64,000 nt of DNA from Candidatus Aminicenantes bacterium (GCA_021162615.1 JAGGYH010000090.1:22800-86799), one strand, 5' to 3'. Shown: positions 4,075-62,969, counted from the first letter of the stretch. The notes: generated by a model from the letters alone, not told the origin. Numbers and translations: made by a program.

Positions 4075-4566
4075 ATGGATATCTCTTTTGTATATAATAA
4101 AAAAGAATTCAAATTGAACTTTGAAGAGGCCCAGAGCGGACATCTCCAGATAACTGTTAATAAAAAGAAATATGATGTTTCTGTTGAATTCTTTTCAGGA
4201 GAGGAAATGCTCTTGAAAATAGGATCCAGGGTTTATGACGTGATAGTGAATCAGAATTCCAATTCATATAATGTCTGCATGAAGGGAAAGAGCATCAAGG
4301 TGGACAAAGCATCACCCTTTCAAACGATCAGAAACAGCTTTGGGAGCACCAGGAGAATGGATGTAAAGACATCCATGCCGGGAAGAGTCGTCGAGCTGCT
4401 GCTCAGGGAAGGAGACAACGTGAAAGAAGGTAGTCCGGTACTGGTGCTGGAAGCCATGAAAATGCAGAATGAAATAAAATCGCCCCGAAAAGGACGGATA
4501 AAAAGCATATATCCTAAGGCCGGAGATTCGGTCGAAGCGGGGGCTGTATTGTTTTCTGTTGAGTAA
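4075..4566 (+). CDS. Biotin carboxyl carrier protein with an N-terminal BT-like domain
   Basis: The C-terminal biotinyl domain carries the EAMKMQNEI motif (biotinylated Lys). The gene starts 1 nt after the accC stop. Confidence 0.85.
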   Translation: MDISFVYNKKEFKLNFEEAQSGHLQITVNKKKYDVSVEFFSGEEMLLKIGSRVYDVIVNQNSNSYNVCMKGKSIKVDKASPFQTIRNSFGSTRRMDVKTSMPGRVVELLLREGDNVKEGSPVLVLEAMKMQNEIKSPRKGRIKSIYPKAGDSVEAGAVLFSVE

Positions 4567-44211: not shown

Positions 44212-45942
44212 TCATTCAGGGGAGAGCCAAAACGGCATCAGCTCCCATATCACCTCATCTCTCAGCATCTGGATGGTCGAAAGCACGTCCTGTACTTTTT
44301 TATCAAACACAGGGATTTTGGATTGAGCCCTGGCCGCAAGTTTTCCGAACAAAGCATCAAAAAGGGAAACTTTTTTGGGGAGCACCACAAGCGCCACTTC
44401 TTCATCTGGAGGGATTCCTGCCATCTCTTTGGCTGTTTGTACTGCTTTTGATAAATCTCCGATGTCATCTATAAGCCCGAGCTTCTGTGCCTGGCTTCCT
44501 GTCCAGACCCTTCCTTTGCCGATTTTATCAATCTCTTCTTTTGTCATGCTGCGGTCATTAGCCGCTTTTGTAATGAAGTTATCATAAGTATCCAGAATCA
44601 TCTCTTTGAGGAACGCCCTTTCTGCATCAGTGCTTTTCCTGAATGTGGTTAAAATGTCGGACTTATCTCCGAAAGAAATTTTTTCCCCTGAAATGCCTAG
44701 TTTTTCATAAAGTTTTCCCATATTGAATTTGGCAAAGATAACCCCTATGGAACCGGTTAAAGTCTGTGGATGAGCTATGATTTTATGGGCCGCCATTGAA
44801 ACCTGATAGCCTCCGGAACCGGCCATATCGGACATAGATACCACAAAAGGTTTTTCTTTTTTTGCCAGAGAGACTTCTCTCCATATGGAGTCAGATGCGA
44901 CAGCAGAGCCGCCGGGGCTGTCCACGCGGAATACAATGGCTTTGATAGAGTCGTCTTTTCTGGCTTTCCTTATCCATCTCACGACGGTCCGGCTTCCCAT
45001 AATCGAATAAGCCCCTTCTCCTGTGAATATGGGGCCTACGCCGTAGAGAAGTGCTATTTTTTTCCCTTTATTAAGCCCAAGCGAGGAAGGCGGTGTTTTT
45101 ACATACTTGGCATGGCTTATCCTGTTGACTTTTTTGTTTTTTCCCCCTATCAAGTCCAGCAGTTCATCCTCATAGAAGACTTCATCCACAAGTCCGGCTT
45201 CCTTGGCTTGTTCCCCCTGAAAAAAGGCGTGATCAATAAGTTTTTCAAAGTCCTGTGCCGTCATTCCTCTCGCTTTTGATGCGGTTTCCACATAAAGGGA
45301 AAAAATCTCACTGTAAATGGATTCCATCATCTCCCTGTGGGCAGGCGTGAGATGGTCTTTGGTGAACATATTATAAGCGGTCTTGTATTCTTCGACCCGT
45401 TCGACCTCTGCTTCCACACCGATTTTATCCAGCAGTTTTTTCACGAACGGCACATACCCGCCTATTCCATTAATGACGAGCATCCCTTCCGGATGAAGAA
45501 CGATTTTGTCGCAGGCTGTGGCAAGATAGTATTCCTTATCCAGGTCATAGGCTTCTTCGATATAGGCGTATACTTTTTTCCCTGATTTTCTAAAATCCAG
45601 CACCAGGTCTCTTATCTCATTTATTTTAGCCCAGTCAGCATCAACATACCCCAGCCTTAACAGGATGCTGTCTATTTTTGTGTCGACTTTGGCTTTGCGC
45701 ATATTTGTCCAGATATCATACATTGAGAGCGGAGGCTGCTGCATGAAAAAAGCGGAAAGAAAGTCAGGATAAGATTTTTCGATAAGCCTCCCCGAGAGGT
45801 TGATCTCGAGGCAGGAGCCGGGTTTTACAGTTGGGACTTTTGCAAATTCGTAATAAAGGAAAGAAACAAAAGTAGCAGCCAGAAGAATGAAAAAAACAAG
45901 AAAGATGATAATGACATATTTACCTTTTTTCATTGAGCACAC
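44212..45942 (-). CDS. sppA: Signal peptide peptidase SppA, 67K type (two S49 domains)
   Basis: N-terminal TM, duplicated S49 fold and the MAGSGGY serine motif. 576 aa. Confidence 0.85.
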   Translation of the reverse strand: MCSMKKGKYVIIIFLVFFILLAATFVSFLYYEFAKVPTVKPGSCLEINLSGRLIEKSYPDFLSAFFMQQPPLSMYDIWTNMRKAKVDTKIDSILLRLGYVDADWAKINEIRDLVLDFRKSGKKVYAYIEEAYDLDKEYYLATACDKIVLHPEGMLVINGIGGYVPFVKKLLDKIGVEAEVERVEEYKTAYNMFTKDHLTPAHREMMESIYSEIFSLYVETASKARGMTAQDFEKLIDHAFFQGEQAKEAGLVDEVFYEDELLDLIGGKNKKVNRISHAKYVKTPPSSLGLNKGKKIALLYGVGPIFTGEGAYSIMGSRTVVRWIRKARKDDSIKAIVFRVDSPGGSAVASDSIWREVSLAKKEKPFVVSMSDMAGSGGYQVSMAAHKIIAHPQTLTGSIGVIFAKFNMGKLYEKLGISGEKISFGDKSDILTTFRKSTDAERAFLKEMILDTYDNFITKAANDRSMTKEEIDKIGKGRVWTGSQAQKLGLIDDIGDLSKAVQTAKEMAGIPPDEEVALVVLPKKVSLFDALFGKLAARAQSKIPVFDKKVQDVLSTIQMLRDEVIWELMPFWLSPE

Positions 45943-52763: not shown

Positions 52764-54701
52764 ATGAAATATTTTTGCCGTTTTTCTAAAACAATATCGC
52801 TCATATGTTTGTTTTGTCTCACTGTTATTTTTCTCCCTGCGCAGGCTCCTTCCAAAGGCTACCATGACTATCAGGCGCTCACTTCGGTCCTCAAGCAGAT
52901 TGCTTCCCAGTATCCGGATATCACGGAGCTTAAATCACTGGGAACTACCCTCAAAGGAAAAAACATATGGATGCTACAGATTTCGGGCACGAACGGCCCC
53001 TCACCCCTCGAGAAGCAGGCCCTTTTGATCTGCGGCAACCTGGAAGGCGACCATGTCATAGGGAGTGAAGTGGCTTTGGGAATCGCGCGGCACCTCGCGG
53101 AGAACTATGCCAAAGATGACCAGGTCAAAAAAGTCCTTGACCAGCGCACGTTCTACATTATCCCGCGGCTTAATCCGGACGGAGCCGAGCTTTTTTTCAA
53201 AAAAGTGCTTCATGAGCAGAGCGCAAACCTGAAACCCCGCGATGAGGATTTTGACTGGATAAAAGATGAGGACCCCCCCGAAGATCTGAATAATGACGGA
53301 CTCATCACCATGATGCGGGTAAAGGATAAAGAGGGCGGCTGGACCGTGGATGAAAAAGACCCCAGGCTTATGAAAAAGAAAGAAGACGGCACGCCTCTTG
53401 ATAAGCTCTATAAACTGTATCCCGAAGGAATAGACAATGACGGCGATGGAAACTACAATGAGGACGGAATCGGAGGATTCAATATCAACCGCAATTTCCC
53501 TCATAATTTCGGCTATGATTTTAAAGGACTGGGCGTGTACCCCGCATCTGAGGTTGAGACCCAGTACCTCATAGACTTTATGACGCGTTATGTTCCCGGG
53601 TTTAAGACCCAGCCCCATAAAAATATATGCGGAGTTCTTATCTTTTCCAAATATGATAACCTGGCGGCAGACCCGGGTATCGTATGCGGCACCCCTACTT
53701 TTCCCCAGCCCCCGCAGCAAGTAAGGGACGCAGGAGCCGGACAGATGTTTATGTTTTTCAGGAGGGGAAGAGGAGAGGAAGGCCAGGAACAGCTTCCTCC
53801 GGCAAGAGACCCTCAGCAAAAAAAGACTCTTCCGGCCGATGAATATCTCTTCAAAAACGTAAGCGATAAGTACAAGGAAATAACCGGAATCAAAAGCGCT
53901 CATTCTGAAAAGCCGGCAGGCTCCATGCTGGAATGGGCTTATTTTCAGTTCGGGGTCCCATCTTTTTCCGCAAACCTGTGGTCCCTGAGGGAAGAGGAAA
54001 GAGGCCCCGGAGCAAAAAGGCCCGGCGCCCTGTCCTCACCTTCCCAGGCGCAAACCCAGGAGGCGGCTGCTTCGGACAGGAGAGCCATGTTCATGCAGAT
54101 GATGGGCGGCGCCCGGGGTTCTGCCCCTGGTGCGGCAGGCCGGTCCGCTGATACGGATACCTATAAAAAATGGCTGGACTGGATAGACAAAAACAACAAC
54201 GGGAAAGGATTTGTGGAATGGGCTCCTTTTGAACACGAACAGCTGGGTGAGGTTGAGATCGGAGGATTCGAGCCTTATTTCAGAGTGAATCCCCCTGCCG
54301 AGAAGATCCCCGAGCTCATCAAGTCACATTCTGATTTTGCTCTTTACCTCGCTTCCCAGTTTGCTCATATTGTCATGGAAAAACCCCGGATCAAGAAACT
54401 CTCTTCAGGGCTCTTTGAGCTTAAAGTGACGCTGCACAACAAGGGAAAATTCCCTTATGTCACGGCCATGGGGCAGAGAACCCGGAGCATAAATTCCATA
54501 CTCGTGGAAATCACGCTTGAAGAAGACAAAAACATGTCCCTTTTTGGCGGAAGCAGGAGAGTGGACACCACCAATATCGAACCCGGCGGAGAAAAGGAGA
54601 TCACATGGCTCATTCTTTCGCCTTCTGGGAAAAAAGCGGATATCCGCCTGTGGGCGAGAAACGGCGGCGGTGAAACCAAAGAGTCAGTTGTCTTAAGATA
54701 A
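52764..54701 (+). CDS. M14 (carboxypeptidase A-like) family protein, predicted catalytically degenerate
   Basis: Signal peptide and an M14 N-terminal pattern (YHDYQALTSVLKQIASQYPDITELKSLGTTLKGKNIWMLQISG; NRNF). The metal and catalytic positions are altered relative to the downstream paralog (see finding). Strong RBS AGGAGG. Confidence 0.75.
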   Translation: MKYFCRFSKTISLICLFCLTVIFLPAQAPSKGYHDYQALTSVLKQIASQYPDITELKSLGTTLKGKNIWMLQISGTNGPSPLEKQALLICGNLEGDHVIGSEVALGIARHLAENYAKDDQVKKVLDQRTFYIIPRLNPDGAELFFKKVLHEQSANLKPRDEDFDWIKDEDPPEDLNNDGLITMMRVKDKEGGWTVDEKDPRLMKKKEDGTPLDKLYKLYPEGIDNDGDGNYNEDGIGGFNINRNFPHNFGYDFKGLGVYPASEVETQYLIDFMTRYVPGFKTQPHKNICGVLIFSKYDNLAADPGIVCGTPTFPQPPQQVRDAGAGQMFMFFRRGRGEEGQEQLPPARDPQQKKTLPADEYLFKNVSDKYKEITGIKSAHSEKPAGSMLEWAYFQFGVPSFSANLWSLREEERGPGAKRPGALSSPSQAQTQEAAASDRRAMFMQMMGGARGSAPGAAGRSADTDTYKKWLDWIDKNNNGKGFVEWAPFEHEQLGEVEIGGFEPYFRVNPPAEKIPELIKSHSDFALYLASQFAHIVMEKPRIKKLSSGLFELKVTLHNKGKFPYVTAMGQRTRSINSILVEITLEEDKNMSLFGGSRRVDTTNIEPGGEKEITWLILSPSGKKADIRLWARNGGGETKESVVLR

Positions 54702-54716
54702 TAACGGAGGATAAAA

Positions 54717-56552
54717 ATGAGAAACAGAAAAAATAAATCAATCCGAAATAAAAGAATAATGATGGGAGCTTTTCTTGTTTTAGCACTCGCAGCCGCTTCG
54801 GCCATCGCCCTGGCCCAGGAATATCTTCCCAGAAAGTGGGATACCCGAAAGGTCCATCTTTCGTTTAACCACTATTACGACTGGAACGAAGTGGGAGAGG
54901 CTTTGGAGAAACTTGAAAAAGCATACCCTAAGTTCCTGACCCTTCGTTCCATAGGAACATCCTATCAGGGCCGCGAACTCTGGTATATGACCATCAATAA
55001 TCCGGATACCGGAGATGAGATGGATAAATGCGCCATGTACATTGATGCCAATATTCACGGAAACGAGATCCAGGGCGGCGAAGTGGGCATTTACACCATT
55101 TGGTATCTGATGGAGAATTACCCTTATAATGACTATGTCAGGGAGCTGGTGGATGAGCGGGTGTTTTATATCTTTCCATCCGTGAATCCTGACGGAAGAG
55201 ACCTGTTTATCCACACTGGAGGCTCCTCCCGTTCAGGGCAGGCTCCCTTTGATGATGATAATGACGGGCTTTATGATGAGGACCCACCCGAAGACCTGGA
55301 CGGTGACAAAGAAGTAGGCTCCATGTTCATCAAGGTGAAGCCGGGGGAAGGCGGCTACCGGATGAGCGATAAAGGAGACCGGCTGGTACGGGTAAAAAAG
55401 AACATTGAAGGAAAACCGGATGAATTGGGGGATTATAAGTACATCGGGAGCGAAGGTATTGACAATGACGGAGACGGACGCTACAACGAAGACACAGGCG
55501 GAGGCTATGATCCCAACAGAGACTGGGGCTCTTACTGGCAGCCCTCTTACATCCAGAGAGGCGCGGCCGCTTATCCTTTTTACTGGAAAGAAGCCAAATT
55601 AACCAAGGATTTTTTCTATGCCCATCCCAATATCGCCGGAGTTCAGGCCTTTCATAATTCAGGCGGAATGATCCTCCGCGTTCCCGGCCCCCAGCTCCAT
55701 GGAGAGGTTCCCATGAGCGACAAAGCCGTATACGATGAGATAGGGCAGAAAGGCGAGAAGATCATCGAGGGTTACGACTACTTCGTCATATGGAAAGACC
55801 TGTACAATGTTTGGGGAGGGTTCATCGATTTTACCTATGATATGCTGGGAGTTTTCTCCTTTTCCAATGAGCTCTGGGCATCCAGGGCGGATCTGGACGG
55901 TGACGGTGAGGTCACCTTGGAAGAAGAGGAATTCTTTTCCAGATACATTGACATGGGAAACACAGAAGTCGCTATGCATGAGATCGATCATCCCGAACTG
56001 GGCAAGGTCATTATTGACAGGGATACGACCAAACTGAGCGGACGCATTCCCCCTTCCTGGCTGCTTGAAGAGCTCTGCCACAGGAATATGGCCTTCTGTT
56101 TGCTTCACGCTTATGAGATGCCCCTTCCCGTTATCAAGGATGTCTCTGCAGAGAAGATCAATCCGGACCTTTATAAAATCAAAGTCACTCTTTACAATGA
56201 ACGGCTTATGCCCACTCTATCGGCTGCAGCGGTTCAGCACCAGGTGCAGAGGCCGGATATACTGTCACTTAAAGGAAATATAGAGGTGCTGGCTGCAGGC
56301 CAGGGCCAAGGAACAGGCCTTCCCAGCGGAATTCCCAGACGATATCTCATGTTTTTCCGGGGCAGGGGCGCCGGAGGTTCTGATGTGACCCTGCTCGATC
56401 AGAAAGATCCGGGAAACATAAAGCTTTTCAACGGGATCCCAGGAAGAAGCGAAGCGGAATACCAGTTTCTGGTCAAAGGAAAAGGCGAAGTCACCGTAGA
56501 GCTGGACTGTGTCAAGGGCGGAACCCACACCCAAAAAATCCAATTAAATTAA
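54717..56552 (+). CDS. M14 family zinc carboxypeptidase
   Basis: HGNE zinc motif (IDANIHGNEIQGGE), NRD substrate loop, AFHNSGG (third zinc ligand) and FSNELW (catalytic Glu). Signal peptide. RBS GGAGG. Confidence 0.8.
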   Translation: MRNRKNKSIRNKRIMMGAFLVLALAAASAIALAQEYLPRKWDTRKVHLSFNHYYDWNEVGEALEKLEKAYPKFLTLRSIGTSYQGRELWYMTINNPDTGDEMDKCAMYIDANIHGNEIQGGEVGIYTIWYLMENYPYNDYVRELVDERVFYIFPSVNPDGRDLFIHTGGSSRSGQAPFDDDNDGLYDEDPPEDLDGDKEVGSMFIKVKPGEGGYRMSDKGDRLVRVKKNIEGKPDELGDYKYIGSEGIDNDGDGRYNEDTGGGYDPNRDWGSYWQPSYIQRGAAAYPFYWKEAKLTKDFFYAHPNIAGVQAFHNSGGMILRVPGPQLHGEVPMSDKAVYDEIGQKGEKIIEGYDYFVIWKDLYNVWGGFIDFTYDMLGVFSFSNELWASRADLDGDGEVTLEEEEFFSRYIDMGNTEVAMHEIDHPELGKVIIDRDTTKLSGRIPPSWLLEELCHRNMAFCLLHAYEMPLPVIKDVSAEKINPDLYKIKVTLYNERLMPTLSAAAVQHQVQRPDILSLKGNIEVLAAGQGQGTGLPSGIPRRYLMFFRGRGAGGSDVTLLDQKDPGNIKLFNGIPGRSEAEYQFLVKGKGEVTVELDCVKGGTHTQKIQLN

Positions 56553-56683
56553 GGGGACGGGCCCGGCTAATTTATTTAAATTGAATAACTTGTAGTATGT
56601 TTTCCACAGGTCAGCTTCTCTATTTCCCCTGAAGTTCTTTTTTCATACGTTAAAAAGGCCCCAAAAAATATTCTAATCACGAG

Positions 56684-56709
56684 TGAACCTTTTTTCCTCA
56701 TGCTCCGTA
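56684..56709 (+). promoter_or_regulatory. ECF-type promoter (TGAACC-N16-CGTA)
   Basis: TGAACC at 56684-56689, a 16-nt spacer, then CGTA at 56706-56709. This lies about 27-33 nt upstream of the first gene of the ECF cluster and matches the general ECF pattern (G)GAAC-N16/17-CGT. Confidence 0.5.
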
Positions 56710-56735
56710 ATAACAGGTGAAAGAAACATACGGAG

Positions 56736-57146
56736 ATGAAAATGAAATCAGCGAAAAAATGGATAGGAATTTGCGGGATTCTTCCTCTTGTGCTCTTGCT
56801 AAGCGGATGTTTTTGTGTTGAAGTGAAAAACAACGTAAGAAATCCGGACAAGTATTTCAATGAGGCTCACCGCCAAATCAGAAGGCTTCACCATCAGTAC
56901 CCTGACAGAAGAGGGCCTGTCTCTACGATCAATGTTTTGGTTTACGAGAAGTCAGAACGGCAGCTTATAAGAGTTGAGGCCCCTTTGTGGATTATTGACG
57001 CGGGTATGGATTACTGCGATACTTATGATATTGACACAGACTGTGATTTCAAATTTAGCGATATCGATGACCTAAGGGATTTAGGTCCGGGGATGCTTAT
57101 GGAAGCAGACAGCGAGGACAGTATGATCCTGATTTGGGTAGAATAG
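56736..57146 (+). CDS. Small lipoprotein carrying the shared C-terminal '...ILIWVE' module (P1)
   Basis: Lipobox LLLSGC. The C-terminal ~75 aa align with the C-termini of the 58606 and 59463 products. The true start may be ATG 56742, which has better spacing to GGAG. Confidence 0.55.
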   Translation: MKMKSAKKWIGICGILPLVLLLSGCFCVEVKNNVRNPDKYFNEAHRQIRRLHHQYPDRRGPVSTINVLVYEKSERQLIRVEAPLWIIDAGMDYCDTYDIDTDCDFKFSDIDDLRDLGPGMLMEADSEDSMILIWVE

Positions 57147-57174
57147 CTCTCTTCCTCTTTAAGGATCAAAAGGA

Positions 57175-57792
57175 TTGTTTGAGCTTGTTATAAACGGCAA
57201 ACAAATGCAGAGTCAAGCGGTTTCAGCGGAAATGGATAACATCACTGTTCTTGCTGAAAGAGCTAAACAAGGAGACCGGGAGGCATTCATGACGATAACC
57301 AGCCTGTTTCAGAAAAATGTTTTTCAGCTTGCCTACTCCTTTTTCCGGAACAGAGAAGATGCTCTGGACATTGTTCAGGATACCTTTTTAAGGCTTTATA
57401 AAAAAATCCAGTTTTACGAAAGAGATAAAAGCTTTAAAAGCTGGGTCCTCCAAATCGCCAAAAACCTCTGCATAGACCGCTACAGAAAAAATCACAATAA
57501 ACACGACAATAAAGCCATGGGAAGCGCTGAAATGGACAGCCTCCCCTTCACAGATAAGACAGACACAGAGACAAACTCAGATACAGATATAAAAAGAATC
57601 ATTTCCAAATGTTTGAAAGAACTTCCCGAGAGGCAGCGCATGATATTTGTGATGAAGCACTACAACGAGCTCAAATACACGGAGATCGCCGAAACCCTTG
57701 GCGTTGCTGTGGGAACAGCCAAATCGCTTCATTACAAAGCGGTAAATAATTTAAGAAATCTAATGAACCCTTATTTAGGGAGGCCGTTATGA
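57175..57792 (+). CDS. ECF-type RNA polymerase sigma factor (sigma-70 family group 4)
   Basis: Region 2 (FQKNVFQLAYSFFRNREDALDIVQDTFLRLYKK...SFKSWVLQIAKNLCIDRYRK) and region 4 (LPERQRMIFVMKHYNELKYTEIAETLGVAVGTAKSLHYKAVNNLR). The start is uncertain (TTG 57175, ATG 57205 or ATG 57232). Confidence 0.85.
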   Translation: MFELVINGKQMQSQAVSAEMDNITVLAERAKQGDREAFMTITSLFQKNVFQLAYSFFRNREDALDIVQDTFLRLYKKIQFYERDKSFKSWVLQIAKNLCIDRYRKNHNKHDNKAMGSAEMDSLPFTDKTDTETNSDTDIKRIISKCLKELPERQRMIFVMKHYNELKYTEIAETLGVAVGTAKSLHYKAVNNLRNLMNPYLGRPL

Positions 57793-58604
57793 AAGACTGC
57801 AAAAAGATAAAAAAAGATATGGTGGCATACATATATAATGACACAGATGAGAAGACGAGCCGGGAAATAAAAGCCCACCTGGAATCCTGCCCTGAATGCC
57901 GGCGTGAACATAAGGAATTGAGAAAGGTTCTTTTGTATGCGGACTCGTTGAAAGAAGATATAGATAACGCTGTGGAATCAGTGGAGTGGGATGAGCTTCC
58001 TTCCCAGATCGCTGAGCGTGCTTTTTCCAAAAAATACAGCCGGAGCCATCACAAAGGAGAAGCATCCAAAAGATTTCTCAGTTCCATTTTAACCCCCAAA
58101 TGGGCTCCGGTCTACGCAGCGCTTTTGGCAGGGATCATCATCGGAGGCGCCCTGACTTTTATTTTCCTCCGTCCGGGAGCAGCCCCTGAGGGCACATCCC
58201 CTTCTCCTTTCATGGTCTCCAGCGACTTTATCGAAACCATGGATGTGGAGATGGCGCGGCGTGAGACTCTGGATTATCTGGATCAGAGCAAGTATTTGCT
58301 GCTTGATTTTGTGCAGGCCTCTCCTGAAGGCGCTGCCCAATACTGGAAGAGCGATTTTGTGGAGGCCAAGACAAGCGAGCTTCTCTCTAAAAAGAGATAC
58401 ATGAACCAGCAGCTGGATAAATACCACATGGCCAAAGCCAAAGCCATTTGCGACCAGATAGAAATCCTCCTCCTGGAGCTTACCGGGATGAGTGGAGAGC
58501 TGTCAGACGCTGAGCGAGATCAGATACGCGAGCTTATCGAACAGAGGCAGATTATATTAAAGATAAATCTCATCAAAAAAGAATTACAACAAAGCGAGGT
58601 CTAA
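57789..58604 (+). CDS. Anti-sigma factor, zf-HC2 (ZAS-like) with one TM and a helical extracytoplasmic domain
   Basis: N-terminal C-x25-H-x3-C-x2-C (MKDC...KAHLESCPEC) and TM WAPVYAALLAGIIIGGALTFIFL. ATGA overlap with the sigma gene. Confidence 0.75.
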   Translation: MKDCKKIKKDMVAYIYNDTDEKTSREIKAHLESCPECRREHKELRKVLLYADSLKEDIDNAVESVEWDELPSQIAERAFSKKYSRSHHKGEASKRFLSSILTPKWAPVYAALLAGIIIGGALTFIFLRPGAAPEGTSPSPFMVSSDFIETMDVEMARRETLDYLDQSKYLLLDFVQASPEGAAQYWKSDFVEAKTSELLSKKRYMNQQLDKYHMAKAKAICDQIEILLLELTGMSGELSDAERDQIRELIEQRQIILKINLIKKELQQSEV

Positions 58605-58605
58605 A

Positions 58606-59448
58606 GTGAGAAAAACAAAAACAGCACTGGCTCTACTGGTTATGGCGTTTTCTTTTCTTCAGGTATATGCCCAGGCACCATCGGACAAGGAGTTGTTACA
58701 GGAAGCAAAAATCCTGATTTTCGATAAAAAATGGGAACAGGCGCAGCAAAAACTGGACGACCTCCTTGTGCGTTACTCTGACAGCCCTCTTTATTCACGG
58801 GCGCTTTTTTACAAGGGCAAATGCCTGTCAGAACAGGAAGGCGAAGAGAGAAAAGCCATAGAGGTGTATAAACAGTATAAAGGCCGTAAAGACGCGGATA
58901 AGAATTTGATACAAGAGTCAGAGATAAAGATCATCGATCTTTCCTTCGATCTCTATGAACAGGGCAGAACTTCATATATTGATGAAATAGAACAGTCACT
59001 CCGAAGCAGAGACAAAGCCGTAAGATATTATGCGGCTATCAAATTGAGTAAAGTATCGGATAAGAGCACAGCCAGAAAAGGGCTTCCCGTGCTTAAAGAC
59101 ATTCTCGAGCGGGAAAAAGATACGGAACTGCGCGATCTGGCCAAACTGGCTGTTCTGAGAATCGATCCGGATGAACTGGAAAACATCCAAGACCATGAAT
59201 ATGAAACCAGGCCCAGGATGCTCTGCATAAGAATTTATGACAGAGGAGAGGAAGAGGCAAGTTTCTCTCTGAACATCCCCTGGGCTCTGGCTGACCTGGC
59301 CCTCAGCTCGATTCCGGAAGAAGATAAACAGAAGATGAGGGATGAAGGGTATGATTTGGATGACATTATGAAAGAACTCACCAAAATCAAGGGAAATATC
59401 CTTGAGATAAAAAGTGAAGACAGCTTAATAAAGATTTGGATTGAATGA
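58606..59448 (+). CDS. Secreted TPR/HEAT-like repeat protein carrying the shared C-terminal '...LIKIWIE' module (P3)
   Basis: Signal peptide (..FLQVYAQAP), a YbgF-like TPR segment (WEQAQQKLDDLLVRYSDSPLYSRALFYKGKC) and a HEAT-like segment (RSRDKAVRYYAAIKL...LRDLAKLAVLRI), then the shared module. GTG start 1 nt after the anti-sigma stop, preceded by GAGG. Confidence 0.55.
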   Translation: MRKTKTALALLVMAFSFLQVYAQAPSDKELLQEAKILIFDKKWEQAQQKLDDLLVRYSDSPLYSRALFYKGKCLSEQEGEERKAIEVYKQYKGRKDADKNLIQESEIKIIDLSFDLYEQGRTSYIDEIEQSLRSRDKAVRYYAAIKLSKVSDKSTARKGLPVLKDILEREKDTELRDLAKLAVLRIDPDELENIQDHEYETRPRMLCIRIYDRGEEEASFSLNIPWALADLALSSIPEEDKQKMRDEGYDLDDIMKELTKIKGNILEIKSEDSLIKIWIE

Positions 59449-59462
59449 CACCAAGGAGGCAT

Positions 59463-59846
59463 ATGATGAAAAAAATAACAATTTTCGTTTTACTGGCATT
59501 TGCTTTAAGTCTGGCTCCGGCTCACATGCTCATGGCTGAGGGCAATGAACTTCAGACCATTAAGAAAGCCGTAAAAAAGAACCCGAATATCGATCCGGGC
59601 CAGGAAGTCAAATGGTTCAAGGTCCTTATCACAGACACAAGAAGCAAAAAAGAAAAAGTGAAGATCACACTGCCCGTATCCCTCATAGAGCTGATTCTGG
59701 AAGCAGACCATGACCACTTCAGGATAGACAGAGACGAATACGATGTGGACATCAGGGAGATCTTCAGGGAGCTCAAAAAAGCAGGCCCCATGGCTATCAT
59801 AGAGATTTGCGAAGACGGCGAGCTCATCAAAGTGTGGTTCGAATAG
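59463..59846 (+). CDS. Small secreted protein consisting of a signal peptide plus the shared '...LIKVWFE' module (P4)
   Basis: Signal peptide MMKKITIFVLLAFALSLAPAHMLMA. RBS AAGGAGG at 59453-59459. Followed by a strong terminator. Confidence 0.5.
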   Translation: MMKKITIFVLLAFALSLAPAHMLMAEGNELQTIKKAVKKNPNIDPGQEVKWFKVLITDTRSKKEKVKITLPVSLIELILEADHDHFRIDRDEYDVDIREIFRELKKAGPMAIIEICEDGELIKVWFE

Positions 59847-59866
59847 GTTACCTGCGCATCAACCAA

Positions 59867-59895
59867 GGGCAGCCTCCAGGCTGCCCTTTTTTTTT
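59867..59895 (+). terminator. Rho-independent terminator of the ECF operon
   Basis: GGGCAGCC (59867-59874), loop TCCA, GGCTGCCC (59879-59886), then T9 (59887-59895). Confidence 0.75.
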
Positions 59896-60128: not shown

Positions 60129-60866
60129 GTGAAAAAAGGCGTCCGAAAGATCTACCAAGAGGTAGCTCCCACTTATGAGCTCATCAACCATGTGCTTACC
60201 TTAGGAATGGATATTTTATGGAGAAAACGCGCTGCCTGGATAGCAGCGAAAATCAGGGCCGGCGAAAAATACGCTTCCCCTACATCCCGCCCATTCCGCA
60301 TACTGGATGTGTGCAGCGGAACAGGGGAGATGGCCCGGGACCTGGCTGTCCGTATGGACAGGAAAAAAGCGCTCAAAGCAGAGATCTATGCGGCAGACGG
60401 AAGCCCGTCCATGATTCACAGGGCTAAAAACAAAGAACATCTCCGCTCAGTCAGATTCACCCTTGCGGACGCAGGAAATCTTCCGTTTCCTGACAGCACC
60501 TTTGACCTCATCACCATCTCTTTTTCCACCAGGAATCTCAATCCCAATCCACAGGCCATGTTATCTTATCTAAGGGAATTCTTCCGCATCCTTAAACCGG
60601 AAGGCACTTTCCTGAATCTGGAGACCAGCCAGCCCCCTCTGCCGGTCATTAAAACGCTCTATCATCTTTATATACGTTTGATAGTCAAACCGGCAGGGTA
60701 TCTCATTTCAGGGTCCAGAGCAGGGTACAATTACCTATCTTACACCATGCCCCGATTTTATGATGCCCCGGAATTTTCAGCCCTCTGCCGCAAAGCCGGA
60801 TTTTCCTTTATCCAGCACAGCCTGCTGTTTTTAGGAGCGGCGGCCATCCACACCGCCCGGAAATAG
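60129..60866 (+). CDS. ubiE: Class I SAM-dependent methyltransferase, UbiE/MenG (demethylmenaquinone methyltransferase) family
   Basis: YELINHVLTLGMDILWRK (UbiE-type N-terminus), SAM motif ILDVCSGTGEMA, and LKPEGTFLNLE. GTG start. Confidence 0.75.
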   Translation: MKKGVRKIYQEVAPTYELINHVLTLGMDILWRKRAAWIAAKIRAGEKYASPTSRPFRILDVCSGTGEMARDLAVRMDRKKALKAEIYAADGSPSMIHRAKNKEHLRSVRFTLADAGNLPFPDSTFDLITISFSTRNLNPNPQAMLSYLREFFRILKPEGTFLNLETSQPPLPVIKTLYHLYIRLIVKPAGYLISGSRAGYNYLSYTMPRFYDAPEFSALCRKAGFSFIQHSLLFLGAAAIHTARK

Positions 60867-60920
60867 CTAGAAATTTCCATTATCTCTGTGGTATACTAAG
60901 CGATTAATTTGAGCATAAAA

Positions 60921-62969
60921 ATGAAAAATTTATCAAGATGCCTGCTAAGCCTTGTATTCACCGTTCTCCTGTTCTCTGGTCTATCTGCACAGTCACAATG
61001 GAAGCTCAAACAAATCACTGCGAAAAGGACAAAAAGTCACATAAAAATAGACGGCTTTTTAGACGAGGCTGACTGGAAAGAAGCCTCAAAAGCAGCGGAC
61101 TTTATCCAGATTGAGCCGGAAAAAGGGAGCCCTGCTTCAGAGAAGACCGTTGTCAGTGTCCTGTTCGACGGCCGGTCAATTTATTTTGGATTCTGGTGTA
61201 CTGACTCAGAACCCAAAAAGATTGCGGCCCGGATGACCAAGAGAGACATGGACCTCCGCTCAGACGACTCGGTATATGTTCTTATCGATACCTTCCATGA
61301 CCGGAGAAGCTGTTATTTTGTCTGCACCAATCCCTTAGGGACACAGTGGGACGGCCGTATCACAGAAAACGGCCGGACTGTTGATTCCACCTGGGATGGG
61401 ATATGGAAATCCGCGGCTCAGAGAACTGATTTCGGCTGGACAGCTGAGTTTGCTGTGGAGCTGAGAAGTCTCAAATATGAGCCCGGCGAAGAAAAAACAT
61501 GGGGATTGAATTTAGGCCGCGGGATTCCCCGGAAACTGGAGTTCAGCTTCTGGACGGGACCGATGGAGTCCGCTTATAAGGTTTCACAGTTCGGAGAACT
61601 GACTGGCCTGGACCTTAAGAAAGCAGCTAAAAAGATTCAGGTCATTCCTCACTTTATCTCCAAAGCGGAAGAAGGGAAAAAGACCACTGCCCAGGCAGGG
61701 CTGGACGCCCGGTATGCATTTTCTCAAGCTGTCTCCGGGAATTTCACCGTCAATCCAGATTTTGCCACAGTTGAAGCAGATCAGGAGGTCATCAACCTCA
61801 CACGTTTTGAAACTTATCTCTCAGAGAAGAGAAACTTTTTTTTGGAAGGAAGTGAGATTTACAAGCAGCGAATTAATTTGTTTTATTCGCGGAGGATTTC
61901 AGATATTTATGGAGGGGCCAAAGTCTATGGAAAAGTCAAGAGCTTCGAATTCCAGGGGTTGACTGCTCAAACCAAAGAAAACCAGGACGCAGGGGAGGGC
62001 TCTGCTAATTTCACGGTCTTTCGTTTGAAAAAAGATGTGATGAAATCGTCAAACATCGGATTCACAGCAGCCAACAAACTGATAAATGGAAAAAATTCGG
62101 GAACAACAGGAATGGATGCGGCCTTGTACTTTTCAGATAGATTTAAGTTCACAGGCCAGCTGGCCCTGAGCTATGGAGATAAAAATACAGACAACGTCGC
62201 TTTTTTTCTCCGTCCCAGCTATGACACCTCCACATTTCACATCCATCTTCGATACACTCAATTAGGAGGAAACTTCGCAGATAATGCCAACACCGTAGGA
62301 TTTGTCCGGGATGACAACCGGAGAGAGCTGGATTCGGCCTTATCCAAGACATTTTTCCCGAAAAAATTGGGATTTGAACGCATTGAGTATAGCTCAAACT
62401 ACAATATCTATTGGGGCTTGGATGGAACACTGAGAAGCTGGAAAATCGACCAGGAAGTGGATTTTGATTTAAAAAACAAATTTTCCTTTAGTTTGGAGCA
62501 TCACGAAGAGTTCAAATTGTATGAGAAAGAATTCAGAAACCGCCAGAGCGAACTTGAAATAGGATACAATACAAGAGAATGGCAGCATGCGGCTTTTTCT
62601 TACAGCTTTGGGCAAAACTTTGACAGGGATTTTCACATGCTCGAGGGAGAGGTCAATTTTAAACTGACCCGGGATTTTTCAGCCTCTTATGGATTAGAAC
62701 GCGTTCTGTTCGATCCTGACCCTGAAAACGAAAGCACCTGGATCCATGTTCTGAGGGCTACCAATTATTTTACCAATGACTTGTTCGTAAAACTTTTTTA
62801 CCAGATCAACACCGCAATCGACAAAAGCAATGTCCAGGTCCTGTTTGTATATCGTTTTCAACCTCCTTTTGGATCTGTACAAATCGCTTACCAGAAAGGA
62901 ACCGGCGAATTCGGCGAAAGAGGGGTTCAAGGGAATACTCTGTTCCTCAAATTCGCCTATATGTTTTGA
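60921..62969 (+). CDS. CBM9-like / DUF5916-type outer-membrane-associated beta-barrel protein
   Basis: Signal peptide, then IKIDGFLDEADWKEASKAADFIQIEPEKGSPASEKTVVSVLFDGRSIYFGFWCTD...DDSVYVLIDTFHDRR (carbohydrate-binding family 9-like). A long beta-rich body ends ...LFLKFAYMF. Confidence 0.65.
   Translation: MKNLSRCLLSLVFTVLLFSGLSAQSQWKLKQITAKRTKSHIKIDGFLDEADWKEASKAADFIQIEPEKGSPASEKTVVSVLFDGRSIYFGFWCTDSEPKKIAARMTKRDMDLRSDDSVYVLIDTFHDRRSCYFVCTNPLGTQWDGRITENGRTVDSTWDGIWKSAAQRTDFGWTAEFAVELRSLKYEPGEEKTWGLNLGRGIPRKLEFSFWTGPMESAYKVSQFGELTGLDLKKAAKKIQVIPHFISKAEEGKKTTAQAGLDARYAFSQAVSGNFTVNPDFATVEADQEVINLTRFETYLSEKRNFFLEGSEIYKQRINLFYSRRISDIYGGAKVYGKVKSFEFQGLTAQTKENQDAGEGSANFTVFRLKKDVMKSSNIGFTAANKLINGKNSGTTGMDAALYFSDRFKFTGQLALSYGDKNTDNVAFFLRPSYDTSTFHIHLRYTQLGGNFADNANTVGFVRDDNRRELDSALSKTFFPKKLGFERIEYSSNYNIYWGLDGTLRSWKIDQEVDFDLKNKFSFSLEHHEEFKLYEKEFRNRQSELEIGYNTREWQHAAFSYSFGQNFDRDFHMLEGEVNFKLTRDFSASYGLERVLFDPDPENESTWIHVLRATNYFTNDLFVKLFYQINTAIDKSNVQVLFVYRFQPPFGSVQIAYQKGTGEFGERGVQGNTLFLKFAYMF

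Follow-up and report, generated by a model that had tools for sequence, protein, structure and literature searches.

The DNA analysed here is a stretch of 64,000 nucleotides (the window) from a Candidatus Aminicenantes bacterium (GCA_021162615.1, JAGGYH010000090.1:22800-86799). Five open reading frames (ORFs) lie in series on its + strand between a promoter and a terminator (window 56683–59895). They encode a predicted lipoprotein (P1), an extracytoplasmic function (ECF, group IV) sigma factor, an anti-sigma factor, a protein with TPR-like and HEAT-like repeats (P3) and a small predicted secreted protein (P4). An earlier note on this DNA had placed the five genes, in this order, in one unit with an ECF-type promoter upstream and a strong terminator downstream, and all of this anatomy was reproduced by ORF calls and by reading of the sequence.

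The promoter, read directly as GTGAACCTTTTTTCCTCATGCTCCGTA, has the form GTGAACC-N15-CCGTA (56683–56709, + strand) with 'GAAC' in the −35 and 'CGTA' in the −10 element. It ends about 27 nt before the start of P1, and the transcription start is predicted near 56716. P1 (136 aa, 56736–57146) is followed by the sigma factor gene (57175–57792), which is joined by an ATGA overlap to the gene for the 271-aa anti-sigma factor (57789–58604). A single nucleotide separates the TAA stop of the latter from the GTG start of P3 (280 aa, 58606–59448). The stop of P3 at 59448 is followed after 14 nt by the ATG of P4 (59463–59846). The longest ORF for P4 (59445–59846) overlaps the P3 stop; orthologues begin with MKK and place the start at the ATG at 59463 or 59466, which is preceded by an AGGAGG ribosome-binding site. 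Downstream, an intrinsic terminator (59865–59895) consists of a 10-bp stem with 7 GC pairs and a 4-nt loop (59865–59888) and a T-run. All the features are on the + strand.

The sigma factor matched Sigma70_r2 (62.4 bits against a cutoff of 24; 3.5e-17), Sigma70_r4_2 (56 bits, cutoff 25.7; 3.1e-15) and Sigma70_ECF (24.1 bits, cutoff 21.1), and the Pfam scan gave no match to region 3 or region 1.2. With 112.7 bits on the NCBIfam model TIGR02937 (cutoff 42.9) it belongs to the ECF (group IV) sigma factors. It scored below the NCBIfam cutoff of each named equivalog, the best being SigW (119.9 against 209), followed by sigma_PG0214 (107.5 against 130) and RpoE (77.2 against 236). No group description in the ECF classification (PMC7826278) suits it. 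The true start of the protein may be an internal ATG about 10–20 codons downstream of the ORF start.

The product of the next gene carries a zf-HC2 domain at residues 4–38 (42.7 bits, cutoff 22.2; 5.9e-11), and in the translation the segment HLESCPEC presents the HxxxCxxC motif (H30-x3-C34-x2-C37). With this N-terminal domain, and with its gene directly after that of the sigma factor, it is a zinc-binding (ZAS-type, zf-HC2) anti-sigma factor. A single hydrophobic span at about residues 103–127 is followed by a helical part of about 140 aa. The protein thus probably crosses the membrane once and exposes a helical ectodomain of about 140 aa, for which neither a family match nor a PDB sequence match was found.

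The other three proteins would act outside the cytoplasm. Signal peptides and the lipobox were assessed by eye. P1 carries a putative lipobox LLSGC at residues 21–25, which reads LASGC in the related locus L001 and LMSGC in the homologue P0192; LPAM_1 appeared at E 0.58 in the scan of P1, P3, P4 and 16 homologues, a match that is not tied to any one sequence. P1 is accordingly predicted to be a lipoprotein, and P3 and P4, each with a signal peptide, are predicted to be exported. Ahead of its module P4 has a short helix. The repeats of P3 stay below the Pfam gathering thresholds (TPR_6 22.1 bits, cutoff 26.3, 2.3e-4; HEAT_2 19.6 bits, cutoff 27.7, 1.1e-3). The same two families were seen again, weakly, in P3 orthologues, and P3 matched AlphaRep/HEAT chains among PDB sequences at E 1.5e-4. 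P1 and P4 had no Pfam or NCBIfam match.

P1, P3 and P4 end in the same module of about 80 aa with alpha/beta character, as had been proposed. Its copies occupy about the last 76 residues of P1 (56916–57143, ending ILIWVE-stop; profile A3 9.3e-24), the last 78 residues of P3 (59212–59445, ending IKIWIE-stop; 1e-27 for the whole ORF) and the last 81 residues of P4 (59601–59843, ending IKVWFE-stop; 5.5e-38). The three stretches align at invariant P, E and W positions. The similarity survives correction for composition, with BLASTP E values of 2e-4 for P1/P3, 6e-5 for P4/P3 and 2e-4 for P1/P4. A second profile, A4, free of window sequence, was built solely from lineages outside this one (60 two-module proteins) and run on the ORFs of the window in all six frames. 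It recovered P4 at 9.5e-16, P3 at 3.5e-11 (whole ORF) and P1 at 6.1e-5; P4 aligned to the N-terminal module of the profile, and P1 and P3 (a stretch at 2.3e-8) to the C-terminal module. The next-best match, an ORF at 4075–4566 (E 0.0035), had the appearance of a fourth copy and was rejected as spurious, being a biotin carboxyl carrier protein with an EAMKM motif downstream of biotin carboxylase.

The resemblance could in principle be a chance or compositional artefact of charged, low-complexity tails in otherwise unrelated neighbouring genes, a view encouraged by the modest pairwise E values (6e-5 to 2e-4) and by the richness of the module in D, E and K. A profile from other lineages, however, recovers P1, P3 and P4, with no other genuine match in the window. 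Hundreds of homologues share the identical invariant P, E and W positions, and the gene arrangement is kept in all 70 genomes compared (see below). This explanation is already refuted and retains practically no probability.

No recognised family accounts for the module. Pfam-A and NCBIfam searches of P1, P3, P4, the 16 homologues and 60 two-module relatives, also at the permissive limit of E≤10, reached no curated threshold. Among the two-module relatives, weak, sub-threshold matches in consistent positions were obtained to DUF6432 (10/60, best 2.5e-4), DUF7545 (6/60) and DUF4252 (4/60). DUF6432 and DUF7545 may be remote relatives of the module, as judged from these matches. A PDB sequence search with both module profiles gave noise only (PCNA, FABP, roadblock), all at E≥0.09.

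Structure prediction led to the same outcome. The AlphaFold2 model of P4 has a predicted local distance difference test (pLDDT) score of 68 overall and 77–86 in the module, which is modelled as strand-strand-helix-strand-strand-helix-strand-strand, that is, hairpin, helix, small hairpin, helix, hairpin. The two-module homologue P0142, modelled from 60 sequences, gave a pLDDT of 86.9 and a predicted TM score (pTM) of 0.73 with two hairpin-helices-hairpin repeats. The pTM value, rather than the coordinates, suggests that its two modules may form one compact unit. A fold match was taken as Foldseek E≤1e-3 or TM≥0.5 to a PDB chain. The best PDB hit of the P0142 model had E 0.07, with TM values of 0.19–0.26, and that of the P4 model E 0.21; the weak matches were of sliding-clamp, PUR, LolA and roadblock type. 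A search of one model against viral structures likewise returned nothing at E≤1e-3.

The conservation of the cassette was then followed across genomes. A profile of the three modules finds 'hypothetical' proteins of about 130 aa, free of Pfam domains, in metagenome-assembled genomes of Candidatus Aminicenantes (Acidobacteriota). When one genome of each GTDB species was scanned with P4 sequences as query, 101 P4 relatives were obtained, so that these are present in at least 101 species genomes, and 80 loci were fetched. Synteny was scored by tblastn with the five window proteins at the 70 fetched loci whose upstream sequence was long enough. All 70 preserve the order sigma, anti-sigma, P3, P4, with full-length anti-sigma orthologues in all the loci, and P1 lies ahead of the sigma gene at 46. 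Where the loci bear lineage names, these are Aminicenantes, Saccharicenans or Acidobacteriota. Even the divergent members P0269 and P0248 stand behind a sigma/anti-sigma pair, in P3 context. The reading of the five genes as one unit is thus borne out, with a single promoter ahead of P1 or, where P1 is absent, ahead of the sigma gene; and the cassette is more than a plain two-gene ECF unit, since P3 and P4 are conserved and co-encoded in 70/70.

Many TPA/GTDB records titled 'uncultured Eubacteriales bacterium' (L008–L011, L015, L016 and others) hold the cassette at 70–90% protein identity, and the organism name that they bear seems to be a placeholder or a mislabel.

Among the genes of the cassette P1 is accessory, being found in 46/70 genomes and as apparent decayed remnants at two loci. 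At these loci short ORFs before the sigma gene (L043:2719-2913 and L055:2468-2677), ending '...EENKILIWLE' or '...EEHDRVLVRLR', resemble decayed P1, which suggests repeated loss of the lipoprotein copy.

The genes on either side vary with lineage and include ATP-citrate lyase, aconitase, an SppA-like S49 peptidase and an RRM protein. In the window, peptidases of the M14 family lie upstream and a UbiE-type methyltransferase downstream. As the flanking genes differ while the order within the cassette holds, the cassette is a discrete unit that is mobile in context. An SppA-like S49 peptidase gene stands divergently upstream in 24/80 loci and a small RRM protein gene likewise in 35/80, and ATP-citrate lyase is downstream in 20/80. 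The S49 gene of the window (44230–45816, − strand) is about 11 kb from the cassette. This linkage of S49, RRM and citrate lyase genes suggests an ancestral neighbourhood that was broken later by insertions. The two large secreted Peptidase_M14 (zinc carboxypeptidase) paralogs directly upstream (52764–54701 and 54717–56552) are adjacent to each other and outside the conserved unit. On the other side, the UbiE-type methyltransferase gene (60129–60866) is followed at 60909–62969 by a gene for a secreted protein of 686 aa that contains DUF5916 and a weak CBM9-like domain.

The promoter is conserved together with the genes. The strict motif is present at 35/70 loci, and the remaining loci read as variants of the same site, e.g. 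GGTAAACC...CGTA. A relaxed pattern, T[GA]AACC-N16-17-CGT[AT], occurs within 650 nt upstream of the sigma gene, ahead of the first cassette gene, at 70/70 loci, and only one other match was found in the 1.32 Mb of strand length searched in the same loci (about 0.66 Mb of flanking DNA). Within the 64-kb window the relaxed pattern occurs exactly once, at the cassette; a search with the strict pattern, in which up to 3 mismatches were allowed, returned the exact site and one site with 3 mismatches. No other member of the regulon was thus detected in the window by promoter motif. Where P1 is present the motif lies about 50–100 nt ahead of it (about −450 to −560 relative to the sigma gene), and where P1 is absent it is mostly about 30–220 nt ahead of the sigma gene.

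An AAC-containing −35 and a CGT-containing −10 element ahead of the operon of the sigma factor itself are the marks of an autoregulated ECF promoter. A motif that moves with the first gene is to be expected of an autoregulated ECF operon with P1 as a member, and the promoter is probably used by the sigma factor of the cassette. Its near-absence outside the operon suggests that the regulon is small and has the operon itself at its centre.

The module reaches well beyond this class. An exhaustive hidden Markov model (HMM) search of 1.84 billion cluster representatives gave 860 clusters at E≤1e-3, of which 136 reach E≤1e-10. Four forms are seen: P4-like proteins of about 125–135 aa, P3-like proteins of 260–290 aa, P1-like proteins of about 142 aa and many secreted proteins of about 180–195 aa with two modules in tandem. 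The few two-module members with names are from Thermoanaerobaculia and other Acidobacteriota. They are true homologues of the module, exported and encoded as adjacent paralog pairs (Thermoanaerobaculia, UBA4820 and other Acidobacteriota; L005, L007, L092–L094). They differ from the proteins of the cassette in having the modules fused in one chain, with no sigma or anti-sigma gene nearby and no TPR/HEAT carrier, and are themselves uncharacterised and unnamed.

In 5/6 two-module loci a membrane-anchored paralog of 144–180 aa follows the two-module gene after 2–27 nt (family profile E 1e-11 to 1e-15). These unannotated pairs, each of a two-module gene and an N-terminally anchored paralog of about 1.5 modules, lie at L005:5001-6042, L007:5001-6040, L092:4001-5045, L093:2736-3822 and L094:4001-4969. 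Adjacent paralog pairs are therefore the rule for the module outside Aminicenantes. A sigma factor gene was found nearby in none of the six two-module loci, which indicates that service as an ECF accessory is not intrinsic to the module. The association of the module with ECF genes, for which a test had been proposed, thus holds in Aminicenantes (70/70) and fails in other Acidobacteriota (0/6 loci).

Profiles of the two halves of the two-module proteins are matched to differing degrees by the cassette proteins. The N-module profile is preferred by all P4 orthologues (80/80), and the C-module profile by P3 (61/79) and P1 (34/47).

Two members of unusual make-up were noted in the family. P0254 (362 aa) has a weak PsbP_2-like N terminus and then two modules. 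In P0193 (168 aa) a Ku beta-barrel fragment (Pfam 2.9e-19) is joined to a P3-type module; this is most likely a chimeric gene call or an assembly artefact.

A closer parentage for the module was sought in DUF4252. On this account the module would be a very divergent DUF4252, and the cassette the Aminicenantes version of the known, uncharacterised Bacteroidota operon with the order sigma, anti-sigma, DUF4252, DUF4252. The architecture invites the comparison. A Flavobacterium locus (L096) has the order sigma, 149-aa protein, DUF4252, DUF4252, and the Porphyromonas gingivalis operons PG0214–0216 and PG0985–0987 have co-induced genes in the order sigma, hypothetical, DUF4252 (PMC10101095, PMC10434189). 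Both systems have an ECF sigma factor, a small membrane protein and two adjacent paralogous exported proteins of about 130–190 aa, and their sequences resemble each other locally in one helix-plus-hairpin motif. The window sigma factor itself reaches 107.5 bits on the PG0214-family model (cutoff 130). The sub-threshold DUF4252 matches of four of the 60 two-module relatives (best 0.0038; 12.6 and 13.2 bits seen) align the 'LKKxG...hEhxDxxxxhKIW' helix-plus-hairpin at profile positions of about 58–105, and the family consensus, which matches at E 0.1, aligns the same segment there.

The sequences themselves speak against descent. None of P1, P3, P4 and the 16 homologues matches PF14060 at E≤10 (gathering threshold 23.9 bits), and the weak matches to DUF6432 and DUF7545 are commoner than those to DUF4252. 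A DUF4252 alignment, A6, was assembled from 14 Flavobacterium sequences retrieved with a probe sequence; they are about 80% identical, all carry PF14060 and have an effective sequence number (Neff) of 1.7. Comparison by hhalign gave a probability of 6.9% over 28 columns for A4 against A6 and of 3.7% over 25 columns for A3 against A6, with power limited by the shallowness of A6. The sigma factors of the two systems are only 25% identical. The cassette also differs from the Bacteroidota operons in its 271-aa zf-HC2 anti-sigma factor with a large ectodomain, its TPR/HEAT-carrying paralog and its third, lipoprotein paralog. Homology to DUF4252 is thus unsupported, with hhalign probabilities below 7% that cover the helix-plus-hairpin segment only, against a shallow alignment; the resemblance is architectural, and common descent appears improbable.

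DUF4252 was not found beside similar sigma factor genes in three PLSDB records (L088, L089 and L095; NZ_OY725790.1, NZ_OY725747.1 and NZ_OY725908.1, from Parabacteroides distasonis and Bacteroides finegoldii). There, genes for SigW-like ECF factors are followed only by those for small, helical, lysine-/glutamine-rich exported (periplasmic) proteins. These 'plasmid' records carry groES/groEL, rpe and recQ, and look like chromosome fragments.

Several characterised ECF systems offer functional analogies. In RpoE-RseA-RseB(-RseC) and AlgU-MucA-MucB of Proteobacteria an autoregulated ECF operon encodes a single-pass anti-sigma factor and then a periplasmic accessory protein, RseB or MucB, which binds the ectodomain of the anti-sigma factor; RseA has no zinc finger. 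The present cassette encodes two or three accessory proteins that are paralogs of one another, and their binding to the anti-sigma factor is proposed by this analogy. They are not members of the LolA-like RseB/MucB family by Pfam or NCBIfam match or by Foldseek (LolA at E≥0.95, TM≤0.18).

The likeness to SigW-RsiW of Bacillus lies in the sigma factor, for which SigW is the best-scoring named model, in the promoter, whose TGAACC-N16-CGTA is near the SigW consensus TGAAAC-N16-CGTA, and in the anti-sigma factor, RsiW also being a membrane-spanning zinc-finger protein. The score of 119.9 bits is, however, far below the equivalog cutoff, the sigW operon has no P3/P4-like genes and the phylum is another one. 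For P1 an analogy is provided by sigE-cseA-cseB-cseC of Streptomyces, in which an ECF sigma factor shares its transcript with the lipoprotein CseA, a modulator of the envelope-stress signal. Control in that system is by two components and not by an anti-sigma factor, and there is no sequence relation.

The gene anatomy, family relations, synteny and promoter conservation are consistent with a self-contained, positively autoregulated ECF sigma/anti-sigma cassette for envelope signalling, ancestral to Aminicenantes, in which paired modules modulate the anti-sigma factor. We give this model about an even chance; export of the carriers, pairing of the modules, contact with the anti-sigma factor and the signal are the parts that we infer. 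The single-pass anti-sigma factor, through its zinc finger (HxxxCxxC), would hold the sigma factor at the membrane. Once released, the sigma factor would read its own promoter, T[GA]AACC-N16-17-CGTA, and produce one message, [P1]-sigma-anti-sigma-P3-P4, that would end at the terminator. The carriers would be exported, P1 with a lipid anchor, P3 with its TPR/HEAT-like scaffold and P4 in free form. The modules may act in pairs, with the N-type module of P4 joining a C-type module, either that of P3 on its scaffold or that of P1 at its membrane anchor. Such pairing is proposed because modules are fused in pairs elsewhere and because of the N- and C-type profile preferences. The resulting periplasmic complex could join the helical anti-sigma ectodomain in a co-sensing or modulating role like that of RseB for RseA and of MucB for MucA, and the same complex would be the main product that the system induces.

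Several points weigh against this model. The link between the module proteins and the anti-sigma ectodomain is a proposal. The preference for N- or C-type profiles is modest (5–10 bits), and the N profile is the longer one. The single-module model of P4 is of moderate confidence only (pLDDT 68), the signal peptide and lipobox calls rest on the eye, and the size of the regulon was estimated from cassette flanks. Above all, the family exists without a sigma factor (0/6), so its basic job is independent of sigma signalling and the word 'effector' fits at least as well as 'modulator'.

The last point leads to an explanation by output alone, in which P1, P3 and P4 would be envelope-protective, structural or ligand-binding products with no feedback, and the anti-sigma factor would sense by itself. 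The module proteins of other Acidobacteriota need no sigma factor to function, and with the promoter motif nearly absent outside the operon the main regulon would consist of the operon's own products. Effectors are encoded within many ECF operons, an example being sigV-rsiV-oatA of B. subtilis. The invariant, tight order anti-sigma, P3, P4 across the whole class is, on the other hand, more typical of stoichiometric partners, and we consider a pure effector role possible, if on the whole unlikely. The near-absence of other promoter copies fits the co-sensor and effector models alike. The two are compatible and may both hold, and the present data do not separate them. Of the 'dedicated envelope signalling or effector system' put forward in the earlier note, the dedicated part stands, with P3 and P4 conserved and co-encoded beyond the two-gene unit; the choice between signalling and effector is a matter of inference.

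A bolder extension of the signalling model can also be drawn, although we regard it as speculative and rather doubtful. The module would then be a new extracytoplasmic superfamily, possibly a new fold and centred on Acidobacteriota, that works as an obligate two-module unit. In Aminicenantes the split P4-P3/P1 pair would sense a ligand and so gate the proteolysis of the zinc-finger anti-sigma factor. This would make it a kind of periplasmic co-sensor not described before in ECF signalling, and the module would possibly be a distant prototype of DUF4252.

The core of an ECF sigma and anti-sigma factor is ordinary, and ECF operons that include conserved but functionally uncharacterised genes are a familiar general theme. 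What is new is a class-wide cassette whose accessory proteins belong to a sizeable domain family with no name and no structure, and in which paralogs are split in one lineage and fused in others. Aminicenantes are abundant uncultured bacteria of sediments and the subsurface, almost without characterised regulation, and the cassette, present in every sampled genome at differing chromosomal sites, is among the few signalling systems of the class for which the word universal is justified. It defines an unnamed and uncharacterised protein family of about 860 clusters (50% identity), and the pairing of fused and split modules gives a testable idea of how this family works. The conserved and highly specific promoter offers an orthogonal sigma/promoter pair for synthetic biology. 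If the module proteins do co-sense with the anti-sigma factor, they would represent a new type of input for ECF signalling, and this might explain why DUF4252 genes occupy the same position in Bacteroidota, including the stress-induced operons of Porphyromonas gingivalis.

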